Below, one piece after another: positions 3,092 through 37,152 of a DNA stretch of 37,543 bases. Both the position numbers and the translations under genes were made by a program. Location: the NCBI GenBank assembly GCA_026394835.1, contig JAPLZW010000048.1, positions 1-37,543 on the forward strand, given 5' to 3'. The first letter of the stretch is position 1, and each line of letters begins with the position of its first letter. The stretch is from Candidatus Wolfebacteria bacterium (GTDB taxonomy: Bacteria; Patescibacteriota; Minisyncoccia; UBA6257; UBA9933). The notes below the pieces were generated by a model that had not been told where the DNA came from, made no database searches, and saw only the letters and a program-made list of their open reading frames with translations.

Positions 3092-4414
3092 TTATTCCTT
3101 TAAGACTATCATCAAATCCGCCACGTTGAAACTTTTCGGCTCCGCGTATATTAAATCACCGGTTTTTTTGAAAAATTCAAAAGTGCTGTGGCTATCCAGA
3201 TATTCTTCAATGCTCAATCCGAGTTTTTGGGCTGTTTTTAAAGTTTCTTCGTCCCCAATCGCTCCGGCGGCTTCGGTATTATCGTGGCCGTCGGAAGCGA
3301 AGGAGACGATAACGATATCAGATTTAAGATTTAAGCCGTAAGATTTAAGACCACCAAGCACCACTTCCATATTGCGCCCGCCTTTACCGATTTTGCTTTG
3401 GCCAAAATTCACGGTTGTTTCGCCGGCAAATATGTATGCTTCTCCTGATTTGATTTCATCCAAAAACGGCAGAAGAAAATCTTTAGCTTCGCCCTGCATC
3501 GCAAGCCCTTTTATGCGCGGTTCAAGCCCCAGCTCCCGGGCTTTATTAAACATCGCCATTACCGCATCCTCATTATAAACCAAAAGAATATTTTTAGTTT
3601 TTTTGAAATATTTTTCGTCTTTGGGCGTTTCGATTAATGAAAAATCCTCGGGGCTTAGTCCATATTTTTTTAAAATATTTTCCGCGTCGGTCTTAGTAGT
3701 ATAATCCGAAACCGTGGGTCCCGAAGAAACCATGCTCAAATCATTGCCGCAAACATCGGATACTATAAGCGAAATCAGGGTCGCGGGACACGATAACTTC
3801 GCCAAGCCTCCGGCTTTGAATTCCGACAGGTGCTTTCTCACGGTATTAAGCTCAATTATATCCGCTCCAGACTTCGTAAGAGCCTTGGTAGCCAAAATTG
3901 AGGCATTAAGCTCGCTCTCCGAGGCGCAAGCCAAAGCCGAACCACCCCCGCAAATAACCGAAATCAGCAAATCTTTTTCGGTTAAATTTCCCGCAAGCTC
4001 CATTATTTTTTGAGTGGCAAAAATATTCTCTTTCGACGGTAGTGGGTGCGTTCCTGTAAAAATTTTGATTTTTGATATTTGATTTTTGATTTCCGGATTT
4101 TGAACATCCAACGCGATTCCCCGGGTTAATTTATCGCCTAAAATTTCAGCCAGAGAGACTGACGCCAATGCCGAACCCTTACCGATACCAACGATAAAAA
4201 TATTTTCAAAATCAGCTAAGTTCAATTTTGTTTCTTCGTAAATTGTCTTTTCTTCCCACGGGGAAATATGCTCAATAGTAAGAATATCGCCATTTCTTTT
4301 TACCTTGCGCGGCATGGATTTTTCTATATCAATCGCCTCATAGCCGGCATCCGCGATTAAAAGCGCTTTTTTACGCAATGAATTCCGTGATAATTCCCCA
4401 ATATTGGTTATCAT
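3092..4414 (-). CDS. Glycerate 2-kinase / hydroxypyruvate reductase-like protein (DUF4147 + MOFRL family)
   Basis: 440 aa with family motifs GIGKGSALAS, CGGGSAL, AGETTV, GKGGRNMEV and ASDGHDNT. Confidence 0.8.
   Translation of the reverse strand: MITNIGELSRNSLRKKALLIADAGYEAIDIEKSMPRKVKRNGDILTIEHISPWEEKTIYEETKLNLADFENIFIVGIGKGSALASVSLAEILGDKLTRGIALDVQNPEIKNQISKIKIFTGTHPLPSKENIFATQKIMELAGNLTEKDLLISVICGGGSALACASESELNASILATKALTKSGADIIELNTVRKHLSEFKAGGLAKLSCPATLISLIVSDVCGNDLSMVSSGPTVSDYTTKTDAENILKKYGLSPEDFSLIETPKDEKYFKKTKNILLVYNEDAVMAMFNKARELGLEPRIKGLAMQGEAKDFLLPFLDEIKSGEAYIFAGETTVNFGQSKIGKGGRNMEVVLGGLKSYGLNLKSDIVIVSFASDGHDNTEAAGAIGDEETLKTAQKLGLSIEEYLDSHSTFEFFKKTGDLIYAEPKSFNVADLMIVLKE
3321..3348. 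repeat. Heptamer tandem array (gatttaa x4, one degenerate) in frame in the glycerate kinase gene
   Basis: gatttaa|gatttaa|gccgtaa|gatttaa. Encodes LKSYGLNLKS on the minus strand. Confidence 0.85.
4063..4104. repeat. Heptamer tandem array, 6 units (42 nt), in frame in the glycerate kinase gene
   Basis: ttttgat|ttttgat|atttgat|ttttgat|ttccgga|ttttgaa. Encodes NPEIKNQISKIKIF. Confidence 0.85.
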
Positions 4415-5190
4415 TGATTTTTTGAAAATAAAAGGGCTGCGCCAAGAGCGCCGGCATTTTTTAATTTTGTAATTAAAATTACAGTCTTGGCTTTTTCATT
4501 AAATAGGTACTTGCGGATTTCCGACTTTGCCGCGGGCAAATACTTGCGGCTTTCGTTATGGCCGAATCCGCCTCCGATAATAATCGCGTCGGGAGCAAAA
4601 ATATTGATGAAAGACACCAAGCCTTTGCCAATCAGCTTTCCGGCTTGCCTAAAGTCTCCCTTATCTCTGGATGATTGGAATAATTTTTCCAAAAAAACAT
4701 CTCCCATGACAATATGCCCGAATTCCGCGCCAAAATTATTTTTGCCCCGGTAAATACGGCGGTTAATAACAATTCCTCCGCCGATGCCCGTGCCCAAAGT
4801 CAAAGCCAAAAAATTCTGGAATTTTTTTCCTTGTCCGAGCAGTAATTCCGCGCGGGTAAAGCAGTTGGCATCGTTATCTATCCTTACTGTTTTAAATCCG
4901 TTGAGATGAAAGAATTTAACCAAACTCAAATCACGCGCATATTTAATGTTGGGCGAATGCCTGACTACGCCGCTTTTTGTATCCACCGCTCCGGCCATGC
5001 CCACTCCGACCGCGTAAATCTTAGCTCCAGCCGACAAGAAATCCGCTATTTTAATTAAATTACGCTTAAACTCGGATAAATTTTTAGGAGTAGTAACAGT
5101 CAGCTCTTTTTTAATTTTTTTGCCGTCAAAAAGAATCCCGGTAATTTTAGTGCCTCCGATGTCGATTCCAATTACGGTCTTCATATCCAA
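4411..5190 (-). CDS. ROK-family sugar kinase (glucokinase-like)
   Basis: GIDIGGTKI N-terminal ATP motif, DNDANC, and LTLGTGIGGG. Its stop overlaps the start of the downstream gene by 4 nt. Confidence 0.8.
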   Translation of the reverse strand: MDMKTVIGIDIGGTKITGILFDGKKIKKELTVTTPKNLSEFKRNLIKIADFLSAGAKIYAVGVGMAGAVDTKSGVVRHSPNIKYARDLSLVKFFHLNGFKTVRIDNDANCFTRAELLLGQGKKFQNFLALTLGTGIGGGIVINRRIYRGKNNFGAEFGHIVMGDVFLEKLFQSSRDKGDFRQAGKLIGKGLVSFINIFAPDAIIIGGGFGHNESRKYLPAAKSEIRKYLFNEKAKTVILITKLKNAGALGAALLFSKNQ

Positions 5191-7103: not shown

Positions 7104-8297
7104 TTAAATCCGGTTATCTCTGCATATTTTAGCATAATCTCGGGCACTCGTCCGAATTTTCCGCTCCATAGTTTTATAATCCATTTCCACCAGGCCGAAG
7201 CGCGGACAAAAACCGTTATCCCATTCAAAATTGTCGAGTAGGGACCAATAAAAATACCCCCTCACATCAGCTCCTTCCCCCATCGCTTTTGCCATAGCCC
7301 CGATATGCTCGGCTATAAAATGCGAGCGCCTTTCATCTTCATCCCAAACGCCGTTTTCAATAACGTAAATCGGCTTTTCGTATCGCCCGGCAAAATCTTT
7401 CAAAATAAAATAAAATCCCTCCGGGTCAAAAGGCCAATTTTTGAATTTGACATGTTCGGCCGTATCCCGATCGGAATGATAATAGTTTAAACCGATAAAA
7501 TCCTGACAATCGCGAATAGATGAGAAAAAAAGGTGATTCCAAAAATAATTCTTCAGCTTATTCATAAATCGGGTGAAATAAATGATATGGTGGGTTATGC
7601 CGACGCAAGCCTCGGGATTGGCCGTTTTGATGATTTTGTACGCGGCGATATGCGCCCGAGACAGATGACGGTTAACAACAAGATACCGAAACAACGATTT
7701 GCTTTGAGGCGGCCGGATTCCCTCCCAATATCCTTTGCCGGCGTAAACATTGGTTTCATTAAGGGTTATCCAAAATTTAACTTCCGGGAAAACCGAGGCG
7801 ACTATCCTGACATATCTCGCGAAATAATCCGGAGCATTTTTATTAAACCAGCCGCCTTTGTCGCGGAACCATAAAGGAATCGTCCAGTGCCAAAGAGTAA
7901 TAAAAGGCTCAATGCCCCGCTCGCGCAAAGCCTTTACTACTTCTCGATAATGGCTTATTTCTTTTTCGCTGAATTTTCCTTCTTCGGGCTCGATGCGCGA
8001 CCACTCGATTGAAAAACGGTGGGCATTCTGATTTAAAGATTTGGCGATGTCAAAATCTTCCCGAAAACGATTATAATGGTCGCAAGTTTTTCCGGAAATA
8101 TAATTTTGGGAATTTTGCGCCCGATCTTTTATCTCGGGCCAAACAGGCAAACGTCCGGATTTTTTTTCCGATTGAAGAGCCAAACGCCCGGCATTGGCCT
8201 TTTCCCACGCCGACCAATCGTTAATATTCCCGCCCTCAACTTGATGAGCTGAGGTGGCGCTGCCCCAAAAAAACCCTTTCGGAAACTGAAAATTCAT
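7104..8297 (-). CDS. GH1-family beta-glucosidase
   Basis: FPKGFFWGSATSAHQVEGG N-terminal signature, ITLNETN acid/base region, YVIENG nucleophile motif, and WSLLDNFEW. Confidence 0.88.
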   Translation of the reverse strand: MNFQFPKGFFWGSATSAHQVEGGNINDWSAWEKANAGRLALQSEKKSGRLPVWPEIKDRAQNSQNYISGKTCDHYNRFREDFDIAKSLNQNAHRFSIEWSRIEPEEGKFSEKEISHYREVVKALRERGIEPFITLWHWTIPLWFRDKGGWFNKNAPDYFARYVRIVASVFPEVKFWITLNETNVYAGKGYWEGIRPPQSKSLFRYLVVNRHLSRAHIAAYKIIKTANPEACVGITHHIIYFTRFMNKLKNYFWNHLFFSSIRDCQDFIGLNYYHSDRDTAEHVKFKNWPFDPEGFYFILKDFAGRYEKPIYVIENGVWDEDERRSHFIAEHIGAMAKAMGEGADVRGYFYWSLLDNFEWDNGFCPRFGLVEMDYKTMERKIRTSARDYAKICRDNRI

Positions 8298-11200
8298 TTA
8301 TTTTACTTTTTTTATTCCGGCCCAGACTTTTTTGCCGTCAACATTGGTTTCGGTTTCGGCGTCGAATTTATCCGTTTTTGAAAATTCAACCCGCTCCGCG
8401 CCCACCCTATCTTTGAATATTTTCAAATTGTTGGAGATCGGCCATTCCAATTCTTTAAACATCTCAAACCATAAAGAAATTTTATCTTTTGGCGTGTAGC
8501 CGGCTTCCTGGCGCAAACCTTGGACCAGCCTGACAAAGTCCCTTAAAATTCCCTCTTCTTTCAATTCCGGCGTGATATTGGTGTCTAATTCCACTTCGCC
8601 GCTTATCTTGGAATCAAAAATGATTTCTTTAACGTTAATTTCGTCTCTTAAAATTTCCAACAATTCTTCTTTATTCTTTATTCTTAATTCTTTATTCTTA
8701 ATTCTTAGCGAAGCTAATGGCTGCCTAACTCTCATTCCGGCTTTTTCGCGGGCTTCAAGCCCCAATGAAGCCAATCTCCTTACATCCTTCATTTGCTCCA
8801 ACAATAATCTTACTTCTCTATTCTTACCTCTTATTTCTTTAAACTTGGGCCACCCGGAAAGGTGGACGCTCTCTTTATTCCCTAATTTAAAATTAAGCCA
8901 CTCGGCCATAAAAGGCATAAACGGCGCCATTACTTTGGAAAATTTTTCGAGAACGTATCTTGTGGCCACCACGGCTTCAGCCTTATCTTTGCCGGCTGAT
9001 TTAAATCTGTCCCGGGAACGGCGCACATACCAAGTTGAAATATCATCCACAAAATCAGACAATGGCCTAACCGCCTTATCAAGCTCGTAATTATCCATCG
9101 CCTTCCCCGCTTCGTTTGCCAGTTGTTCCAACCGCGCGATAATCCACGTATCTAAAACGTTATTGGTTTTTGGCCGTTGGTTATTAGTCGTTGGTCGTTG
9201 GTCGGATGCGTACATTTCGTAGAAACTCACAACATTCGCGAGCCGTAGAATCAGTTTCTTATAGATTTCATCAACGCCTTTTTCGGAAAAATTCAGGTCT
9301 TCGGCGCGGACCACGGGTGATGACAAAAGATAATAACGTAAGGCGTCGGCGCCATATTTATTGACGACTTCCATGGGATCAGGATAATTTTTCAAACGCT
9401 TGGACATCTTCTGGCCGTTCTCCGCGAGGATGATGCCATTCACAACCACGTTTTTGTAGGCCGGTTTCTTAAAAAGGGAAGTTGCCAGAACAAGCATTGT
9501 GTAAAACCAACCGCGCGTCTGGTCTATGCCCTCGGCAATAAATTCCGCCGGAAAATTCTTTTCAAACTTCTTTTTATTCTCAAAAGGATAATGCGCCTGG
9601 CCGTAAGGCATAGCGCCGGATTCAAACCAGCAGTCAAAAACATAATTTTCGCGTTTCATTTTCCCGTGGCACTTTTCGCACGCAAACTCAACTTCATCAA
9701 TATATGGCCGGTGTAAATCCAATTCGTAATTTTTGTTATGCGGCAAAGGAGAAAAATCCAAAGATTTCAGCTCGCCCCGTTTTATGAAATCGTCTTTCGT
9801 GCCGCGCATCTCAATGCTTTTTTCGACACCAGCCCCTTCCGCGCCGGCGATCATAAGCCACAATGGATATTCGTGGCTGACTATCAGGATATTTTTATCT
9901 TTGTATTTTTTATCGATATCATAAAGAAATTCCGTAACGCGGTTTTTGAGCTTAATAAGATTCTCTCCCTCCGGCGGATTCTTTGTGAATTTTTCCAAAA
10001 GCGAGGAAAAATAATTATCATAGTCCCGGTAATATTTGCCGTCGAAGATGCCCACATCCACCTCCATAAGCCGTTTATCAAAGATAACATCGCTTTCGCG
10101 TAAGCCGACCTCCTTTGCCACCAACTCCGCGGTTTCTTTGGCTCTCGCAAGCTCCGAAGAAAAAATTACATCCGGCTTTTTGCCTTTGAGCTCTTTCAGT
10201 AATTTTTGGGCCGAAGCCCGGGCTTCTTTCTTTCCTTTTTCCGTAAGATGATATTTCGCGGCGGCTTTAAGGGTTGCGGCGGAAATTTCAGCCACATTAT
10301 TTTCCGATTCGCCGTGGCGCATCACAAAGTATTTATTCCCCGAATTTATGGAATTCTCTTTGATATCTTTTATAGACCCGACTATTTTCCGCTTCCCGCA
10401 TTTTTCGCACTTCCAGACCGGCAACGGCGCGCCCCAGTACCTTGTCCTTGAAATCGCCCAATCCGGGGCATCTTCCAGGATTTTTCCGAACCTGCCTTTT
10501 TTCACGTGTTCCGGCACCCAATTTACTTTTTTATTATTTTCCAGCAATCCACCCTTTCCTTTTTTGATGGCGGCGATATCCAAAAACCAGGAATTAGCCG
10601 CGTAATTCAAAAGAGGAGTATCGCACCGCCAGCAATGAGGATAAGAATGTTTTATTTTCTCAACTCTCAAAAGTTTGCCTTGCCGCGTAAGCAGATCGAT
10701 TATTTTAAGGTCGGTTTCCTGCGGATTTCCCTTGGGCTTCACCTGAAGTCCCGAGAAATCCGAAACTTCCGGCTTGAATCTGCCATCCATGCCAACGTGC
10801 TGGATAAAAGGAAGATTATTTTTTTTGCCCAAAGCCATATCATCCGCGCCGAAAGCCGGCGCGATATGCACGATGCCCGTGCCTTCATCCGTCGAAACAA
10901 AATCTCCGGCGTAAATTTTCCAACCCTGCTCACGATTTTCTATTTTTTTATCTCTAGTGTAATAATCAAAGAGTGATTTATATTTTTTGCCGATAAGTTT
11001 TTCTCCTTTTATTATTTCTAAAATGTCGTAATCACCATCTATTACCACAAGCCGTTCTCTCGCAAGAATATATTTTTCGCCAGTCTTACTTCTTAATTCT
11101 TTATTCTTAATTCTTATAGTTACGTATTCAATCTTCGGATTCACCGCCAAAGCGACATTGCCCGGCAATGTCCACGGCGTCGTAGTCCATGCCAGGAAAT

Positions 11201-11861
11201 AAGTTCCGGGTTCGTCAACTGACTCAAATTTTACGTAAACCGATGAATCTTCAATGTATTTGTATCCCTGCGCCACTTCAAAATTGGAAAGTGTGGTTTC
11301 ACAACGCGGGCAGATCTGCATTGATTTATATCCTTCATAAATCAGCTTCTTGCCAAAAAGAGTTTTAAAAATCCACCACACGGATTCCGTGTAGCTCGTG
11401 TCCATAGTCTTGTAATCATGCTCCATATCCACCCAACGTCCCATCCGAGGGATAATTTCCTTCCAATCGTCAACGTATTTTAGAACCTCTTTTCTAGCTT
11501 CTTCGTTAAAATTCTCAACCCCGTATTTTTCGATATCCTTTTTGGTTTTGAGATTGAGTTTCTGCTCAACGATATTTTCAATCGGCAAACCATGGCAATC
11601 CCAGCCCCATCTCCGTTCTACGCGAAAACCATTCATTGTTCGGTAGCGCGGGATGACGTCTTTAATGGCGCTCGCGATAATGTGGCCGTAATGCGGCAAG
11701 CCGGTCGCAAAAGGCGGACCGTCGTAAAAAACATAATCCTTCTTGGGATTTTTACCGGCAGGCTTATTAACCGATTTTTCAAAAATTTTATTATCCTGCC
11801 AGTATTTGAGGATTTTTTGCTCTATTTCCGAAATTTTAGAAGTTTTAAAATCGCCGAACAT
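8298..11861 (-). CDS. ileS: Isoleucyl-tRNA synthetase (type 2) with an inserted histidine-phosphatase domain. The ORF is open to 11894, but Met-12 (11861) fits the conserved N-terminus.
   Basis: PPFATGLPHYGH (HIGH), KMSKRL (KMSKS), WTTTPWTLPGN editing-domain motif, and CxxC zinc knuckles. The 1198-aa ORF is longer than I would expect for an IleRS, from memory. See the insert at 9729..10343. Confidence 0.93.
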   Translation of the reverse strand: MFGDFKTSKISEIEQKILKYWQDNKIFEKSVNKPAGKNPKKDYVFYDGPPFATGLPHYGHIIASAIKDVIPRYRTMNGFRVERRWGWDCHGLPIENIVEQKLNLKTKKDIEKYGVENFNEEARKEVLKYVDDWKEIIPRMGRWVDMEHDYKTMDTSYTESVWWIFKTLFGKKLIYEGYKSMQICPRCETTLSNFEVAQGYKYIEDSSVYVKFESVDEPGTYFLAWTTTPWTLPGNVALAVNPKIEYVTIRIKNKELRSKTGEKYILARERLVVIDGDYDILEIIKGEKLIGKKYKSLFDYYTRDKKIENREQGWKIYAGDFVSTDEGTGIVHIAPAFGADDMALGKKNNLPFIQHVGMDGRFKPEVSDFSGLQVKPKGNPQETDLKIIDLLTRQGKLLRVEKIKHSYPHCWRCDTPLLNYAANSWFLDIAAIKKGKGGLLENNKKVNWVPEHVKKGRFGKILEDAPDWAISRTRYWGAPLPVWKCEKCGKRKIVGSIKDIKENSINSGNKYFVMRHGESENNVAEISAATLKAAAKYHLTEKGKKEARASAQKLLKELKGKKPDVIFSSELARAKETAELVAKEVGLRESDVIFDKRLMEVDVGIFDGKYYRDYDNYFSSLLEKFTKNPPEGENLIKLKNRVTEFLYDIDKKYKDKNILIVSHEYPLWLMIAGAEGAGVEKSIEMRGTKDDFIKRGELKSLDFSPLPHNKNYELDLHRPYIDEVEFACEKCHGKMKRENYVFDCWFESGAMPYGQAHYPFENKKKFEKNFPAEFIAEGIDQTRGWFYTMLVLATSLFKKPAYKNVVVNGIILAENGQKMSKRLKNYPDPMEVVNKYGADALRYYLLSSPVVRAEDLNFSEKGVDEIYKKLILRLANVVSFYEMYASDQRPTTNNQRPKTNNVLDTWIIARLEQLANEAGKAMDNYELDKAVRPLSDFVDDISTWYVRRSRDRFKSAGKDKAEAVVATRYVLEKFSKVMAPFMPFMAEWLNFKLGNKESVHLSGWPKFKEIRGKNREVRLLLEQMKDVRRLASLGLEAREKAGMRVRQPLASLRIKNKELRIKNKEELLEILRDEINVKEIIFDSKISGEVELDTNITPELKEEGILRDFVRLVQGLRQEAGYTPKDKISLWFEMFKELEWPISNNLKIFKDRVGAERVEFSKTDKFDAETETNVDGKKVWAGIKKVK
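8664..8707. repeat. Heptamer tandem array (ctttatt/cttaatt, about 6 units) in frame near the ileS 3' end
   Basis: ctttatt|ctttatt|cttaatt|ctttatt|cttaatt. Encodes LRIKNKELRIKNKEE. It shares a 27-nt identical core with 11090..11116. Confidence 0.9.
9164..9205. repeat. Heptamer tandem array, 6 units (42 nt), in frame in ileS
   Basis: ttggttt|ttggccg|ttggtta|ttagtcg|ttggtcg|ttggtcg. Encodes DQRPTTNNQRPKTN. Confidence 0.9.
9729..10343 (-). other. Histidine-phosphatase (phosphoglycerate-mutase superfamily) domain nested within IleRS, aa ~518-722
   Basis: YFVMRHGESENN (RHG catalytic motif; the His codon is at 10314..10316), SSELARAKETA, LMEVDVGIFDG and LIVSHEYPL. The domain is flanked by IleRS CEKCG (aa 496-500) and DLHRPYIDEVEFACEKCHG (aa 726-743). 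Confidence 0.8.
11085..11119. repeat. Heptamer tandem array, 5 units, in frame in ileS
   Basis: cttactt|cttaatt|ctttatt|cttaatt|cttatag. Encodes TIRIKNKELRSK. Confidence 0.9.
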
Positions 11862-11996
11862 AGTAGGAGTAATCGCGAATAACGCGAATATCAATTAAAT
11901 AATGCGAATGCTTAAAAAATAAATTAGCATTATTCGCTGGAATTCGCATTATTAGCGAACACTATTTAAAATAGCGGAAAAACGGCGTTTTGTCTA

Positions 11997-16915: not shown

Positions 16916-19096
16916 CTAAGCCTCTATATCGTCACGGTCAGACCTGTTTAAGAATACCTCCCTGGGTTTTGCGCCGTCTCCCGGGCCGATTATTCCTTTG
17001 GCTTCCATAATATCAAGGAGCCTCGCGGCGCGGGCATAGCCGACTTTAAGCCGCCGCTGGAGCAGGGATGCCGAAGCTTTTTGGGCATCGGTCACGACCT
17101 GAACCGCGTCGCCCAAAAGGTCATCCCCATCCTCATCACCGTATTTATCAAGCGTTTCGCCGGAAATCTTCAAATAATCTCCATCGCCCACCTCGGCATT
17201 TCCCGAACCGTTAAAAGAAACATCATTGCCCTCAAAACCCTTAGTATTTTCTTTGATGAAAGTAATAACTTTGTTAATTTCTTCTTCCGAAATATAAGCT
17301 CCCTGGATTCTTTTCGGCTTGGAGATTTCGGAAGTGACGAAAAGCATATCGCCGCCGCCCAAAAGTTTTTCCGCGCCGGAAGAATCAAGAATAGTCCTTG
17401 AATCAACCTGGCTCGGCAACTGCAAAGCGATTCTTGAGGTGATGTTCGCCTTGATAAGCCCGGTAATGACTTCAACCGAAGGCCGCTGGGTTGACAGGAT
17501 TAAATGAATGCCGGTCGCGCGCGCCATCTGCGCCAGCCTCACTATTGAGCCTTCAATTTCTCTGCCGTAAGTCGCCATTAAATCCGCCAACTCGTCGATC
17601 GCAAGCACAATATACGGCATAACGTCATCCGCGTGTTTTTTATTATAACTTTGGATGTCTCTCGATCCGGCCTGTAAAAGGGTCTCGTACCGGCGGTCCA
17701 TCTCGTCTATCAGCCATCTGAATACGCCCATGGATTTTTTGGGATTCGTGATGACAGGCGAGACAAGATGGGGAATGCCGTCATAGACGGAAAGTTCCAC
17801 GCGTTTGGGGTCAATCAGAATCAGGCGCAATGTTTCCGGAGAGTTTTTATAAAGCAAAGATATTAAAAGTGATTGGATGGCAATCGATTTTCCGGAACCG
17901 CTGGAACCCGCGATCAAAAGATGAGGCATTTTTTCTATGTCGCCGAAAATCGGGTCGCCGGAAACATCTCTTCCCAAAATAAATCCCAGAAGCCCGGCCG
18001 CATTGAATTCCGGATAAACCATAAGGCTTCCCAGACGGACAATAGCGCTTGCCTTATTCGGCACCTCAACCCCCACAAGAGAACGGCCGGGGATTGGCGC
18101 CTCTATCCTTATAGGGTGAGCTGCCAAAACCAAGGCCAAGTCTTGATTCAGGGCCATAATCCTCGACAATTTCACGCCTTCGGCCGGCTTTAACGTATAA
18201 CGGGTGAATTTAGGCCCGACATTGATTTCGGACATCTCCACATTAATTCCAAAGCCTTCAAAGGTTCTTTTTATAATATTGGCATTCGCGCGTAAATCTC
18301 CGGAAGTCGGTTTTTCGATTGATGACTTAAGAAGGCTAAGGGGCGGCGCCACATAATTTTTAAAAGATAATTTTTTAATGGCTCCCGACTTCCCCAGCTT
18401 ATCCGAAGATTCAAGAACCATAAGGTCTTCTTCTTTTTCTCCCGCGTCATCATTCTTCCTGGCGGCTTTTCTCTTTTCATCCTTGATATCGGTTGAGGCG
18501 ATTGAGGCCTCTATGGTTTCTTCTTCTTCCTCGGAAAATTCTTCGTCCAAACCCGGCTTCTCTTTATTCCTGAAGTTGGCGATTGTTTTCAGGTTTATCG
18601 GCAGATTAAAAGTAACGAGCAGGGCGGCAATAATCAAAATCGAAAGAACGATGATGGCGGCGACATAACCGAATGGCAATTCGGCATAACCCACGAGTTT
18701 TCCGATAAGCCCGGATTCGTCCGGATAAATAACATCAATCAGGCCCAACCCCGACAAAACGAAAATCAAAGCGCCCCAAAAAGTCGCCTGATAAATCCGG
18801 CGGCGTTCCGAAGACATGAAGACTCCCGATAAAATCAGAAATATCAAAGGCAAAAGATAGTAGCCAACGCCGAAGAGATATCGAAAAGCGCCGTAAAAAA
18901 ATTCGCCTACCGGACCGGCATTATTGAATCTCGCGAGAATCAAGATGACGGCGATGCCAAAAAAAACTAAAGCCCAGATGGATTTCTTAAGCTCATGGGT
19001 CAAAATCGGCTCCCTTCCCGAGTTATCACGGCGATAATCCGCGGGCTTTCCTTTTCCGTTTTTATATTTATTTTTGTTTTTGCGGGACATTATCAA
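16916..19096 (-). CDS. ftsK: DNA translocase FtsK/SpoIIIE
   Basis: N-terminal TM segments, an acidic linker, the motor domain with LLIAGSSGSGKS Walker A and IVLAIDELADLM Walker B, and a C-terminal gamma wHTH (SASLLQRRLKVGYARAARLLD). Confidence 0.93.
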   Translation of the reverse strand: MIMSRKNKNKYKNGKGKPADYRRDNSGREPILTHELKKSIWALVFFGIAVILILARFNNAGPVGEFFYGAFRYLFGVGYYLLPLIFLILSGVFMSSERRRIYQATFWGALIFVLSGLGLIDVIYPDESGLIGKLVGYAELPFGYVAAIIVLSILIIAALLVTFNLPINLKTIANFRNKEKPGLDEEFSEEEEETIEASIASTDIKDEKRKAARKNDDAGEKEEDLMVLESSDKLGKSGAIKKLSFKNYVAPPLSLLKSSIEKPTSGDLRANANIIKRTFEGFGINVEMSEINVGPKFTRYTLKPAEGVKLSRIMALNQDLALVLAAHPIRIEAPIPGRSLVGVEVPNKASAIVRLGSLMVYPEFNAAGLLGFILGRDVSGDPIFGDIEKMPHLLIAGSSGSGKSIAIQSLLISLLYKNSPETLRLILIDPKRVELSVYDGIPHLVSPVITNPKKSMGVFRWLIDEMDRRYETLLQAGSRDIQSYNKKHADDVMPYIVLAIDELADLMATYGREIEGSIVRLAQMARATGIHLILSTQRPSVEVITGLIKANITSRIALQLPSQVDSRTILDSSGAEKLLGGGDMLFVTSEISKPKRIQGAYISEEEINKVITFIKENTKGFEGNDVSFNGSGNAEVGDGDYLKISGETLDKYGDEDGDDLLGDAVQVVTDAQKASASLLQRRLKVGYARAARLLDIMEAKGIIGPGDGAKPREVFLNRSDRDDIEA

Positions 19097-19178
19097 AAAT
19101 TACAACACAAAATTTAAACAGGCCGAAATTTTCTTAAGGCATTTTAAATTTACTACGAAATCAGGTAAAATTCAATTA

Positions 19179-19568
19179 ATGAATATAGCCATTTTTAAAG
19201 CTTACGACATAAGGGGGAAATATCCCGAAGAGATAAACGAAGCGACTGTTGCGAGGATAACAGAGACAATCGCCAAGTCTATTAAAAAGGGGAAAATAAT
19301 TATCGGCTGCGACGTAAGAGCAAGCTCTTTCTCTTTGTGTAAAGCCGCCCTTGACGCCCTTAAATCATTTAACGGCGAAGTGGTGCCGGTAGGCGTCGTA
19401 ACCACGCCCATGTTCTATTTCTTGGTAAATCAATTTAAGGCCAATCGGGGCATAATGGTTACCGCTTCGCATAATCCCAAAGAATATAATGGCTTAAAAA
19501 TGGTAAAAGAAGGGGCATTCCCCATAAGCGGTAAAGAAGTTTTGGAGTTAATAACCGGGAACCAATAA
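19179..19568 (+). CDS. Phosphomannomutase/phosphoglucomutase, domain I only (N-terminal fragment of a split gene)
   Basis: FKAYDIRGKYPEEIN and the active-site TASHNPKEYNGLK. The start is set at Met-36 of the listed ORF, because the upstream part overlaps ftsK. Confidence 0.75.
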   Translation: MNIAIFKAYDIRGKYPEEINEATVARITETIAKSIKKGKIIIGCDVRASSFSLCKAALDALKSFNGEVVPVGVVTTPMFYFLVNQFKANRGIMVTASHNPKEYNGLKMVKEGAFPISGKEVLELITGNQ

Positions 19569-19569
19569 C

Positions 19570-20472
19570 ATGGACTATCTGAAGTTGTACGCCGATTTCT
19601 TGAAGAAATCCCTGGAACCGCGCAAGCCGGTTAAAATCGTCATGGATGCGTCCAACGGAGCCACCGGCATGGTGCTGAAAAAAGTTTTTTCAAAAAACAA
19701 ATCAGTGTCTCCTTTTTACCTGAATGCAAAACCTGATGGCAATTTCCCCGGGCACGGGCCAAACCCGATGATTCTTGGCGCCACAAACCAGCTGCAAACG
19801 GAAGTAAAAAAACAGAAAGCTGATTTTGGATTTATTTTCGATGCTGATGGCGATAGGGTTTTTTTTACCGACAACAAGGGAAGGATGGTGAACCCGGACA
19901 GCATAGCCAGGCTGCTTGTCTCCTATTTGAAGCCGGTAAAAATCGTTATAAATGAACCGACGGGATTGCTCGTGCGGAACATTCCCAAAGAAATGCCCGG
20001 GAAGAAAATTATTGAATCAAGAGTCGGCCATTACTTTATGATGAAAACCATGAAAGAGACTGATTCCGATTTCGGAGCCGAGCACTCCGCCCATTATTAT
20101 TTTAAAAAATTCTTCTACAGGGATGCGGGGATTTTAGCGGCTATTAACGTCATAAACGCGGTATCCGAGCTGCCTTACCCTTTGTCTCAATTTGTTGACT
20201 TCCTCCCTGTTTTTTACCACATTCCGGAAACTAATTTCCGTGTAAAAAATAGCGAAAAATTAATGAAAGAAATTAAGAAAAGTTATTCTTCAAAAGCCCT
20301 CAAAACAAGCAATTTGGACGGATTAACTTTCAGGTTTAAAAATTATTGGTTTAATGTCAGAGCCTCAAACACAGAACCCCTTATCAGGCTAAATCTGGAA
20401 ACACTTTCCGGAAAATTACTGGAAGAAAAAACCAAAGAACTGAGCGATTTTATCTCTCGTCCCAGACTTTAA
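19570..20472 (+). CDS. Phosphomannomutase/phosphoglucomutase, domains II-IV (C-terminal fragment of a split gene)
   Basis: IVMDASNGATG, the FDADGDRVFF metal-binding loop, GAEHSAHYYF, and RASNTEPLIRLNLE. It starts 1 nt after the stop of the preceding ORF, in a different frame. Confidence 0.75.
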   Translation: MDYLKLYADFLKKSLEPRKPVKIVMDASNGATGMVLKKVFSKNKSVSPFYLNAKPDGNFPGHGPNPMILGATNQLQTEVKKQKADFGFIFDADGDRVFFTDNKGRMVNPDSIARLLVSYLKPVKIVINEPTGLLVRNIPKEMPGKKIIESRVGHYFMMKTMKETDSDFGAEHSAHYYFKKFFYRDAGILAAINVINAVSELPYPLSQFVDFLPVFYHIPETNFRVKNSEKLMKEIKKSYSSKALKTSNLDGLTFRFKNYWFNVRASNTEPLIRLNLETLSGKLLEEKTKELSDFISRPRL

Positions 20473-28401: not shown

Positions 28402-28403
28402 AG

Positions 28404-28477
<74 letters not shown>

Positions 28478-32552: not shown

Positions 32553-32556
32553 CGGG

Positions 32557-32628
32557 TGGGCGTGGATGGGATCGGACCATCGACTTCCGCTTTATAAGAG
32601 CGGCGTTCTACCACTGAACTACACGCCC
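32557..32628 (-). tRNA. tRNA-Ile with anticodon TAT (UAU)
   Basis: Minus-strand read GGGCGTG TA GTTC AGTGGTA GAAC G CCGCT CTTATAA AGCGG AAGTC GATGG TCCGATC CCATC CACGCCC A. The four-arm cloverleaf is clean. The anticodon-loop centre is TAT. The T-loop reads TCC where TTC is usual. Confidence 0.8.
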
Positions 32629-36246: not shown

Positions 36247-36756
36247 ATGGATATGGACTCAAAAATGCGTTCCAAAATAGACGTGCGTTTATATAAAAAC
36301 GCTGTCTTATATTTTATAAAATACTGCAATAATCAGTATTTACACGCCACTAAATTAAACAAGTTATTGTATTATCTTGATTTTGTTTATTTCCGCGACC
36401 ATAAAAATTCTGTCACCGGCGATGTTTACATCCACCAAGGATACGGTCCGGTGCCTTCACGCATTGACGAGATCCTTGCGGTACTTAAAGACGAGGGGGC
36501 AATTGATACTGAAGCAGTTGATTTTAAAGATGGAGAGTTAATTCAGTTTGAGCTCAAAAACCCAAAAAAGTTAGATGAATCAGTATTCGCGCCGGAACAA
36601 AAAAAACTTCTTAAACAAATCTGCGATGAGTTTGGTAATTGGCCGACGGAAAAAATTGTCGCGCAAACACATCTTGAAGCTCCATGGTTTTATTCGAAGC
36701 CATACGAAATTGTGGACTACTCCTATTCGCGCGACATTGAATTATTTAAGAAATAA
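36247..36756 (+). CDS. Panacea (DUF4065, SocA/PanA-like) antitoxin-domain protein
   Basis: TKLNKLLYYLDFVYFRDHKNSVTGDVYIHQGYGPVP matches the core of the DUF4065 domain. It lies immediately upstream of a small RelE/ParE-like ORF. Confidence 0.7.
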   Translation: MDMDSKMRSKIDVRLYKNAVLYFIKYCNNQYLHATKLNKLLYYLDFVYFRDHKNSVTGDVYIHQGYGPVPSRIDEILAVLKDEGAIDTEAVDFKDGELIQFELKNPKKLDESVFAPEQKKLLKQICDEFGNWPTEKIVAQTHLEAPWFYSKPYEIVDYSYSRDIELFKK

Positions 36757-36768
36757 CATGTCGCGCCT

Positions 36769-37152
36769 ATGTCGTGGATTTACGTTGAACGAGAACAATT
36801 TGTGCGGATGTGCGAAAAACTCTGTATTTCTGTTACGGTTCGTGAAGCCATTAAATCATGGGCGCCAACCGTAAGCCGTTTTGAACTTTCCCGCCAAAAA
36901 CTGGTTTACCGCTCACCCAAAAATCGCTACGAGGCATGGGCGGCTGGTATCCCTAATCCGGACAGCAATAAAGGTAAAAGCGGCGGCTACAGGGTTATTT
37001 ATTTTCTGGATATAAAAGAATGCACCATCAATCTCGATTTCATAGAGGACCGTAAAGAGTTAGGATTCAAGGGCGAAGGTCAACGGAAGAAAGGCAAATA
37101 CCAAAACTACGTAGATGAATTAAAAGAGTATCTAAAAAAACTGGATGCGTAG
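36769..37152 (+). CDS. RelE/ParE-superfamily-like toxin
   Basis: 127 aa with a KGKSGGYRVIYFLD beta-strand motif, as in RelE/ParE (HigB/Gp49-like) toxins. It starts 12 nt after the upstream stop. Confidence 0.6.
   Translation: MSWIYVEREQFVRMCEKLCISVTVREAIKSWAPTVSRFELSRQKLVYRSPKNRYEAWAAGIPNPDSNKGKSGGYRVIYFLDIKECTINLDFIEDRKELGFKGEGQRKKGKYQNYVDELKEYLKKLDA

Follow-up and report, generated by a model that had tools for sequence, protein, structure and literature searches.

Aminoacyl-tRNA synthetases are among the best-studied enzymes, and where they carry accessory domains, these nearly always have to do with tRNA binding, editing, or regulation. The closest described relatives of the protein considered here are the type-2 isoleucyl-tRNA synthetases (IleRS) with solved structures, in which about 37 residues lie between the two halves of a Cys4 zinc hairpin (8c8u and 1ILE). 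We analyzed a stretch of 37,543 nucleotides from a Candidatus Wolfebacteria bacterium, a tiny symbiont among the Patescibacteria (GenBank assembly GCA_026394835.1, contig JAPLZW010000048.1), referred to as the window. Its ileS gene encodes a protein that shares the zinc hairpin and is colinear with these enzymes over the catalytic, CP1 editing, and anticodon-binding domains, but its zinc-knuckle halves are 239 residues apart and hold a whole second enzyme, a histidine phosphatase domain. The arrangement is widespread in Patescibacteria, recurrent, and under selection, and its kind is that of a synthetase with an accessory catalytic domain.

When aa 516 to 715 were deleted from the ileS product, the remaining sequence was colinear with residues 436 to 562 of 1ILE and 433 to 563 of 8c8u, leaving a gap of only 2 to 3 residues. 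Because of this colinearity, the borders of the insert can be given exactly. The features that define it are as follows.

8298..11861, minus strand: ileS, encoding a type-2 IleRS, 1187 aa from the ATG at 11861 (database gene call P0121)
10398..10409, minus strand: first zinc knuckle, CEKC (Cys496 and Cys499), equivalent to Cys461 and Cys464 of T. thermophilus IleRS by alignment and translation
9750..10349, minus strand: 200-aa insertion (aa 516 to 715), a complete branch-1 histidine phosphatase domain, with borders as given by the alignment above
9669..9680, minus strand: second zinc knuckle, CEKC (Cys739 and Cys742), equivalent to T. thermophilus Cys502 and Cys504 by alignment and translation

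Thus, the zinc-knuckle hairpin, which belongs to the second half of the Rossmann fold, has been extended cleanly at its tip by 200 aa. A sequence-only reading of this DNA had already placed a phosphatase at 9729..10343, within an IleRS open reading frame of 1198 aa, and was essentially right on both counts. The alignment borders lie between the zinc-knuckle halves, and a single uninterrupted frame runs over 8298..11894 (minus strand), giving 1198 aa if the TTG at 11894 is taken as the start, with the ATG at 11861 (1187 aa) being the likely one. The DLHRPYID..CEKC segment that it named downstream of the insert is found by translation at aa 726 to 733 (DLHRPYID) and 739 to 742 (CEKC). The upstream motif, which it gave as WKCEKCGKRK at aa 495 to 503, is present but was placed one residue off, since WKCEKC occupies aa 494 to 499. 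Its statement that only a few tens of residues usually separate the knuckles agrees with the solved structures, and its remark that intein junction residues are lacking also held. There is no Hint or intein Pfam match in the ileS product, and the junctions, which read KENS/INSGN and LDFS/PLPHNK, show no nucleophilic junction residue of the intein kind (Cys, Ser, or Thr at +1 or after a terminal HN); the PLP motif at the second junction is IleRS's own. We considered whether the insertion site might be that of the leucine-specific domain of leucyl-tRNA synthetase (LeuRS) and ruled this out: the region aligns to residues 418 to 506 of T. thermophilus LeuRS, which form the zinc-module region, and not to residues 577 to 634.

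One explanation can be dismissed at once: that the insert is an assembly chimera or frameshift artefact joining a phosphatase gene to ileS has nothing but the oddity of the architecture in its favor and is refuted by the single frame without a frameshift, the even GC content across the insert borders (0.41 to 0.47), the flanks colinear with solved IleRS structures, and the identical architecture in more than 100 independent assemblies, on contigs of up to 893 kb, and in at least 57 GTDB genomes.

The insert has a strong Pfam match and carries the residues of the phospho-histidine mechanism. Their positions are given here, with conservation in 118 close homologs.

9816..10328, minus strand: Pfam His_Phos_1 (PF00300), aa 523 to 693, E=1.4e-30, 106.8 bits against a cutoff of 21.7
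10311..10319, minus strand: RHG, with Arg526 (conserved in 99%), the nucleophile His527 (100%), and Gly528 (94%)
10143..10145, minus strand: Arg584, the second phosphate-binding arginine, in the SxxxRAxxTA motif (100%)
10062..10064, minus strand: Glu611, the putative proton donor (96%)
9873..9875, minus strand: His674, the second catalytic histidine, in the VSHE motif (99%)

The nucleophile His527 is thus accompanied by a phosphate clamp of Arg526, Arg584, His674, and Asn533 (the last conserved in 96% of the same homologs) and by the proton donor Glu611. In 21 more diverse relatives (33 to 48% identity), the RH pair, the second arginine, and the second histidine are invariant, and the glutamate is nearly so. 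The sequence-only reading had listed the signatures of the phosphoglycerate mutase superfamily in their usual order and had judged the Arg/His/Glu/His set intact. Translation bore out every motif that it quoted (RHG at aa 526 to 528, SSELARAKETA at 579 to 589, EVDVGIFDG at 611 to 619, and VSHE at 672 to 675), and the conservation of the set speaks for its second judgment. Mean pairwise identity is 0.52 both for the insert and for the anticodon-binding and C-terminal part, and it is higher in the catalytic core (0.66 to 0.72). These alignments indicate that the insert is under purifying selection across a large Paceibacteria/Parcubacteria radiation.

Structure prediction gave a confident histidine phosphatase fold. 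AlphaFold2 modeled the insert alone with a pLDDT of 90.9 and a pTM of 0.88. The whole ileS product, judged by these two scores alone, reached 90.0 and 0.83, and its linkers are short, with none disordered or of low confidence. Foldseek matched the model of the insert to the phosphoserine phosphatase PspA (4ij5), the alpha-ribazole phosphatase CobC (6e4b), a riboflavin-pathway phosphatase (9mmh), GpgP (Rv2419c), and PhoE (1h2e), with E values of about 1e-13 to 1e-11 (about 1e-13 to 1e-12 for PspA, CobC, and PhoE), TM scores of about 0.7, and 21 to 28% identity (28% for PspA); cofactor-dependent phosphoglycerate mutases (dPGMs) ranked slightly lower. The match probability was 1.00 for PspA, CobC, PhoE, and the dPGMs. 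None of the corresponding curated NCBIfam cutoffs was reached. The scores were 74.4 against 225 for dPGM_arch, 47.6 against 316 for PRK01295, 47.2 against 261 for GpmB, 68.2 against 350 for PspA, 74.8 against 162.9 for TIGR03162, and 56.6 against 250 for PRK15004. By these comparisons, the insert is best classed as a generic short branch-1 histidine phosphatase that matches no curated specificity family.

The host enzyme, in turn, is a complete and functional-looking type-2 IleRS: the HIGH and KMSKR motifs, the motifs of CP1 editing, and the anticodon-binding domain are all recognizable in its sequence.

11682..11693, minus strand: HIGH motif of the class I catalytic site (HYGH, aa 68 to 71), from translation, invariant in 78 homologs
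11169..11189, minus strand: threonine-rich WTTTPWT of the CP1 editing domain (aa 236 to 242), from translation, invariant in 78 homologs
9396..9410, minus strand: KMSKS-type motif (KMSKR, aa 829 to 833), from translation, conserved in 78 homologs
8718..9152, minus strand: anticodon-binding domain (PF08264, aa 915 to 1059), followed by a C-terminal DUF5915, from Pfam

Pfam finds tRNA-synt_1 (PF00133, E=1.8e-131), Anticodon_1 (PF08264, E=5e-29), DUF5915, and His_Phos_1 in the product. The NCBIfam ileS equivalog TIGR00392 (cutoff 621.4 bits) matches with 867.1 bits in two stretches, one on either side of the phosphatase. The closest PDB structures are P. megaterium IleRS2 (8c8u, E=3e-214) and T. 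thermophilus IleRS (1ILE, E=2e-205), with the type-1 enzyme of S. aureus weaker (1FFY, E=1e-88), which places the protein in the type-2 subgroup. Two editing-domain structures, 1wk8 and 1udz, align with its CP1 region, which contains GTGIVH as well as WTTTPWT, the threonine-rich motif of IleRS editing sites.

We found the same architecture throughout a large part of the Patescibacteria. All 120 of the best full-length homologs carry both PF00133 and PF00300; they are 1150 to 1260 aa long, share 55 to 64% identity, lie on contigs of up to 893 kb, and come from Candidatus Wolfebacteria (including GW2011 genomes in UniRef), Niyogibacteria, Lloydbacteria, and Parcubacteria. When 1.84 billion cluster representatives were scanned exhaustively with the insert and both junctions as the query, at least 136 clusters (50% identity) were matched at E<1e-30, most of them across both junctions. 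A pattern scan found at least 57 GTDB species-representative loci with the insert at the same position, in Wolfe-, Nomura-, Taylor-, Colwell-, Zambryski-, Yanofsky-, and Falkowbacteria, Spechtbacterales, and Paceibacteria. The place is the same even in lineages that have lost the zinc cysteines. Among the GTDB matches listed, the insert was absent from Doudnabacteria, Microgenomates, one Minisyncoccia genome, and all non-Patescibacteria. Automated naming apparently fails on proteins with the insert: many carriers are called "class I tRNA ligase family protein" by NCBI, and fragments are called "histidine phosphatase family protein, partial," instead of isoleucine--tRNA ligase. Such genomes can therefore appear to have no ileS. 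The possibility of a split IleRS had been raised by eight cluster representatives of about 750 aa, which share one start methionine just past SWF. We rejected it, since the two that were checked (L001 and L002) are open upstream to the contig end. In another locus (L058), the break in IleRS is a run of N.

The same phosphatase subfamily is also found in valyl-tRNA synthetase (ValRS). Among the best 120 of the 394 matches to the insert alone, the sole fusion partners are class I synthetase fragments (PF00133), and the full-length hosts among the matches listed are IleRS or ValRS only. The representative search yielded a ValRS fragment (P0366) with four His_Phos copies, three of which are complete and retain RHG, Arg, Glu, and His; the fourth reaches the contig end after its RHG and Arg motifs. 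Of the best 120 ValRS relatives of this fragment, 71 carry a PF00300-type domain, which is single in 57, double in 12, triple in 1, and quadruple in 1. The named sources of domain-bearing ValRS are Gracilibacteria and Peregrinibacteria, alongside related Patescibacteria (P0366 and P0388 to P0506). The main ValRS site lies between WGHRIPVWYDE..IHLP and ..QDEDTLDTWFSSALWP, in a loop homologous to the one that holds the insert in IleRS. A second site, after the SPQWF motif, is occupied by some copies. Some IleRS likewise have a second His_Phos copy at another site (P0376, the 1419-aa P0382, and L060). In L060 (2555..6580), the two copies lie at the canonical site and further downstream in an IleRS with two in-frame TGA codons, which indicate a UGA-recoded lineage. 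Recruitment of the domain has thus been recurrent, and it involves two paralogous synthetases with an editing function.

Three further proteins of this group have unusual architectures. One His_Phos-bearing IleRS (P0381, 1395 aa) has a P-loop kinase-like domain at aa 746 to 869, in a second loop between WFESGSMPYA and FPADFIAEG, as judged from weak AAA_18 and AAA_33 matches and a GACGAGKTT Walker A motif. An IleRS-like protein (P0290, 1066 aa) combines an IS200/REP-type tyrosine transposase domain in CP1 (aa 326 to 472) with the His_Phos insert and a C-terminal GNAT domain, and may be a read-through or a chimera. A stand-alone protein (P0004, 289 aa, on 8 contigs; L088 5001..5870) consists of a degenerate zinc knuckle, the His_Phos domain, and a PLPHN..CSQCGG flank, and looks like a module excised from an IleRS.

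Behind the IleRS fragments, the search with the insert alone ranked free-standing Patescibacteria proteins of about 190 aa and 36 to 46% identity, which we call X. In all seven loci examined, the gene for X lies directly upstream of an ileS without the insert, at a spacing of -7 to +5 nt. In six of these loci (L083, L085, L086, L090, L091, and L092) the order is argS-X-ileS(-recO). The seventh (L055) belongs to the cultured Minisyncoccus archaeiphilus PMX.108, whose genome is complete; there, the two genes overlap by 4 nt.

L055 3983..4570: X of M. archaeiphilus, a 195-aa His_Phos gene with Asp and not Glu at the proton-donor position
L055 4567..7527: ileS of M. archaeiphilus, without the insert, 986 aa

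Among the at least 57 insert-bearing loci, 35 of 57 have a same-strand argS upstream of the fused ileS, often abutting it; in the window, a XerC-like recombinase gene is upstream of ileS, and there is no argS there. No free X was seen within about 4 kb of the fused ileS in the insert-bearing GTDB loci. X is thus next to ileS genes that lack the insert, and no free X was seen in the fused lineages; it therefore looks as if one function exists in two alternative forms, as an inserted domain and as an operon partner. In a neighbor-joining tree of 188 inserted and 129 free domains, the best split separates 177 inserted from 115 free domains, with 25 exceptions. This suggests two clans, inserted and free; the tree is crude and unrooted, and the free exceptions include many short sequences, which may be fragments of genes. 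Charge was compared as a proxy for RNA binding: the free forms have a median isoelectric point of 9.8 and a net charge of +14, and the inserted forms have a median isoelectric point of 6.5; the local background is also basic.

On balance, we lean toward the view that the ileS product is bifunctional, a synthetase and a phosphatase in one, and that the phosphatase activity is tied to class Ia tRNA charging. The parts of this reading differ in strength. The inserted phosphatase is very probably active, to judge from its residues. That its job belongs with class Ia charging, and not with central metabolism, we consider somewhat the likelier case; the operon and fusion evidence supports some link of the phosphatase to tRNA charging and does not thereby identify the substrate. 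The sequence-only reading had floated a nucleotide by-product, a tRNA end, or an inhibitor as possible targets. Our own candidate substrate class, which we put forward tentatively and consider rather unlikely, would be either tRNA whose 3' end is blocked by a phosphate or an adenine-nucleotide phosphomonoester, interfering with charging. The blocking phosphate would be removed on the same enzyme that must use that tRNA next. Toxic alarmone synthetases (toxSAS) pyrophosphorylate tRNA CCA ends and thereby prevent aminoacylation (PMC11559606; 10.1101/2021.04.30.441581), so phosphate-blocked tRNA 3' ends are a real problem. In the most specific version of our proposal, the embedded phosphatase or the operon partner would strip a 3'-phosphate, a 3'-pyrophosphate, or an opened cyclic phosphate from A76 of tRNA-Ile, plus tRNA-Val in Gracilibacteria, after attack by toxSAS-type or ribonuclease toxins, and the once-blocked tRNA would be charged again there and then. 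That class Ia synthetases contain a tRNA 3'-end repair activity of this sort is more doubtful still. If true, a synthetase would for the first time be credited with a tRNA-healing function of its own, and the histidine phosphatase superfamily with an RNA end as a substrate.

Several observations weigh against a role in tRNA charging. The nearest neighbors in structure and sequence are all small-molecule phosphatases (PspA, CobC, the riboflavin-pathway enzyme, GpgP, and PhoE). To our knowledge, RNA ends are not a substrate of any branch-1 histidine phosphatase, and a search of the literature for such a case gave nothing. The excised-looking module P0004 sits inside a NeuC/NeuB/NeuA nonulosonic-acid cluster, which hints at a generic sugar-phosphate activity. 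The charge pattern of the free forms is inconsistent, since X is acidic in L055 and L086, two of the four verified operon examples for which it was computed. In streamlined genomes, genes may be operon neighbors for historical and not for functional reasons, and the insertion could have been seeded simply by gene adjacency, with the ValRS copies arising by recombination between paralogs.

These points bear most directly on the main rival explanation, in which the insert is an independent housekeeping small-molecule phosphatase or mutase, acting on a sugar phosphate, phosphoserine, or phosphoglycerate, that was fused to IleRS by an accident of adjacency and shares its expression with no mechanistic coupling to aminoacylation. 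We regard this as a genuine possibility, if on the unlikely side. It accounts for the closest structures, including PspA at 28% identity, for the weak NCBIfam similarities to the same enzymes, and for the P0004 module in its NeuB/NeuC/NeuA cluster; the adjacency of X and ileS offers a trivial route to fusion, and the window encodes a glycerate kinase, a ROK kinase, and SHMT nearby. However, all of the curated cutoffs were widely missed (by dPGM_arch at 74 against 225, PspA at 68 against 350, and CobC at 75 against 163, for example). Nor would an accident of adjacency lead one to expect that, among the matches listed, the fusions are with IleRS and ValRS only, at two sites or more and in up to four copies, or that each complete copy checked in the multicopy proteins retains its catalytic residues. 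The reduced metabolism of M. archaeiphilus is a further argument against a metabolic role. Its genome lacks complete glycolysis and complete amino-acid, nucleotide, and cofactor pathways (PMC12281837), and still it keeps the X-ileS pair, with X translationally coupled to ileS.

A second alternative, which we consider improbable, is that the insert is a protein phosphatase acting in cis or in trans on the synthetase, for instance on a KMSKS-loop serine phosphorylated by a kinase toxin. HipA/HipT-type kinase toxins inactivate the class I synthetases GltX and TrpS in just this way, and the histidine phosphatase family includes the protein phosphatases SixA, PGAM5, and Sts-1. The association of the domain, among the matches listed, exclusively with class I synthetases (IleRS and ValRS, and ArgRS through the operon) and the conservation of its catalytic residues would fit. 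Yet the case is entirely inferential, the nearest structural neighbors are small-molecule enzymes, and no kinase toxin was encountered, though none was searched for.

A third alternative, very improbable in our view, is that the domain no longer catalyzes anything and serves as a structural or tRNA-binding module (a pseudo-enzyme), or that a permissive loop tolerates it as a neutral, selfish, or intein-like insertion. The loop evidently is permissive, as it holds tandem copies in other lineages and a P-loop domain occurs at a second site, and the linkers are short and predicted to be ordered. However, a purely structural role would not require a catalytic set that is 96 to 100% conserved over deep divergence, proton donor included. 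The purifying selection on the insert is comparable to that on the anticodon-binding domain, and the search for intein features gave neither a domain match nor a nucleophilic junction residue.

If the phosphatase is tied to charging, as we favor, the consequences reach beyond this gene. An intact phosphatase within the catalytic body of IleRS and in the same loop of ValRS, or as a coupled operon partner elsewhere, would imply a phosphate-removing step linked to charging, one that is outside textbook translation. The nested phosphatase is conserved over hundreds of Patescibacteria lineages. Patescibacteria genomes are minimal, and a 200-aa module retained in them is therefore unlikely to be dispensable. 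Because the cultured M. archaeiphilus carries the unfused X-ileS pair, the question is directly testable.

The rest of the window contributes the following observations. A GH1 glycosidase gene begins immediately past the ileS stop codon, with no spacer, and genes for a MOFRL/DUF4147 glycerate-kinase-type protein and a ROK-family kinase are also downstream of ileS (the region of 3092..5190 and 7104..8297, both minus strand). SHMT and FolD are encoded just upstream of the xerC-like gene. Genes for tRNA-Val(UAC) and for a tRNA-Ile with the anticodon UAU, uncommon in bacteria, are at 28403..28477 and 32555..32628, both on the minus strand. Most bacteria decode AUA with a lysidine-modified CAU tRNA; the IleRS of this organism may therefore have to recognize a UAU anticodon. 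A phosphoglucomutase/phosphomannomutase is encoded in two adjacent reading frames, with domain I at 19074..19568 (plus strand) and domains II to IV at 19570..20472 (plus strand), which may reflect a frameshift, a pseudogene, or a gene that is truly split. Near the window end, a SocA/Panacea-domain antitoxin gene (E=1.6e-18; 36247..36756, plus strand) is followed by a 127-aa reading frame with a GGYRVIY motif (36769..37152, plus strand) that is RelE/ParE-like by eye; the two are probably a toxin-antitoxin pair. A link to toxSAS through this Panacea antitoxin was considered and dropped, since the neighboring toxin resembles RelE and not toxSAS.

No synthetase or tRNA-repair enzyme is known to us to contain a histidine phosphatase, and a full-text literature search found no description of such a domain in a synthetase. 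The sequences are public under automated names only, and we found no publication on an IleRS with a nested histidine phosphatase, so that the arrangement seems to be undescribed. It can be set beside four kinds of known system. PspA (4ij5), CobC (6e4b), 9mmh, PhoE (1h2e), and GpgP (Rv2419c) share the fold and the RHG/Arg/Glu/His constellation of the insert, but they are free-standing small-molecule enzymes, whereas the insert is nested in a synthetase and its free relatives are operon partners of ileS. The Rv2228c-type RNase H/acid phosphatases (NF005567) resemble it in that a His_Phos domain is fused to a nucleic-acid enzyme, and theirs is the best-scoring NCBIfam phosphatase model for the insert, at 76.7 bits, far below the cutoff of 326; their fusion is terminal and not nested, and the partner enzyme is unrelated. 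The isoleucine--tRNA ligases with an N-acetyltransferase domain (NF040702) are likewise tRNA enzymes with an added catalytic domain, which differs in family and position; the ileS product scores 328.6 on this model, far below its cutoff of 1999. The HD domain of bacterial CCA-adding enzymes has 2',3'-cyclic phosphodiesterase and phosphatase activity and serves in tRNA 3'-end repair. It provides the closest functional analogy to a synthetase-borne phosphatase tied to tRNA charging, from which it differs in domain family and in position.

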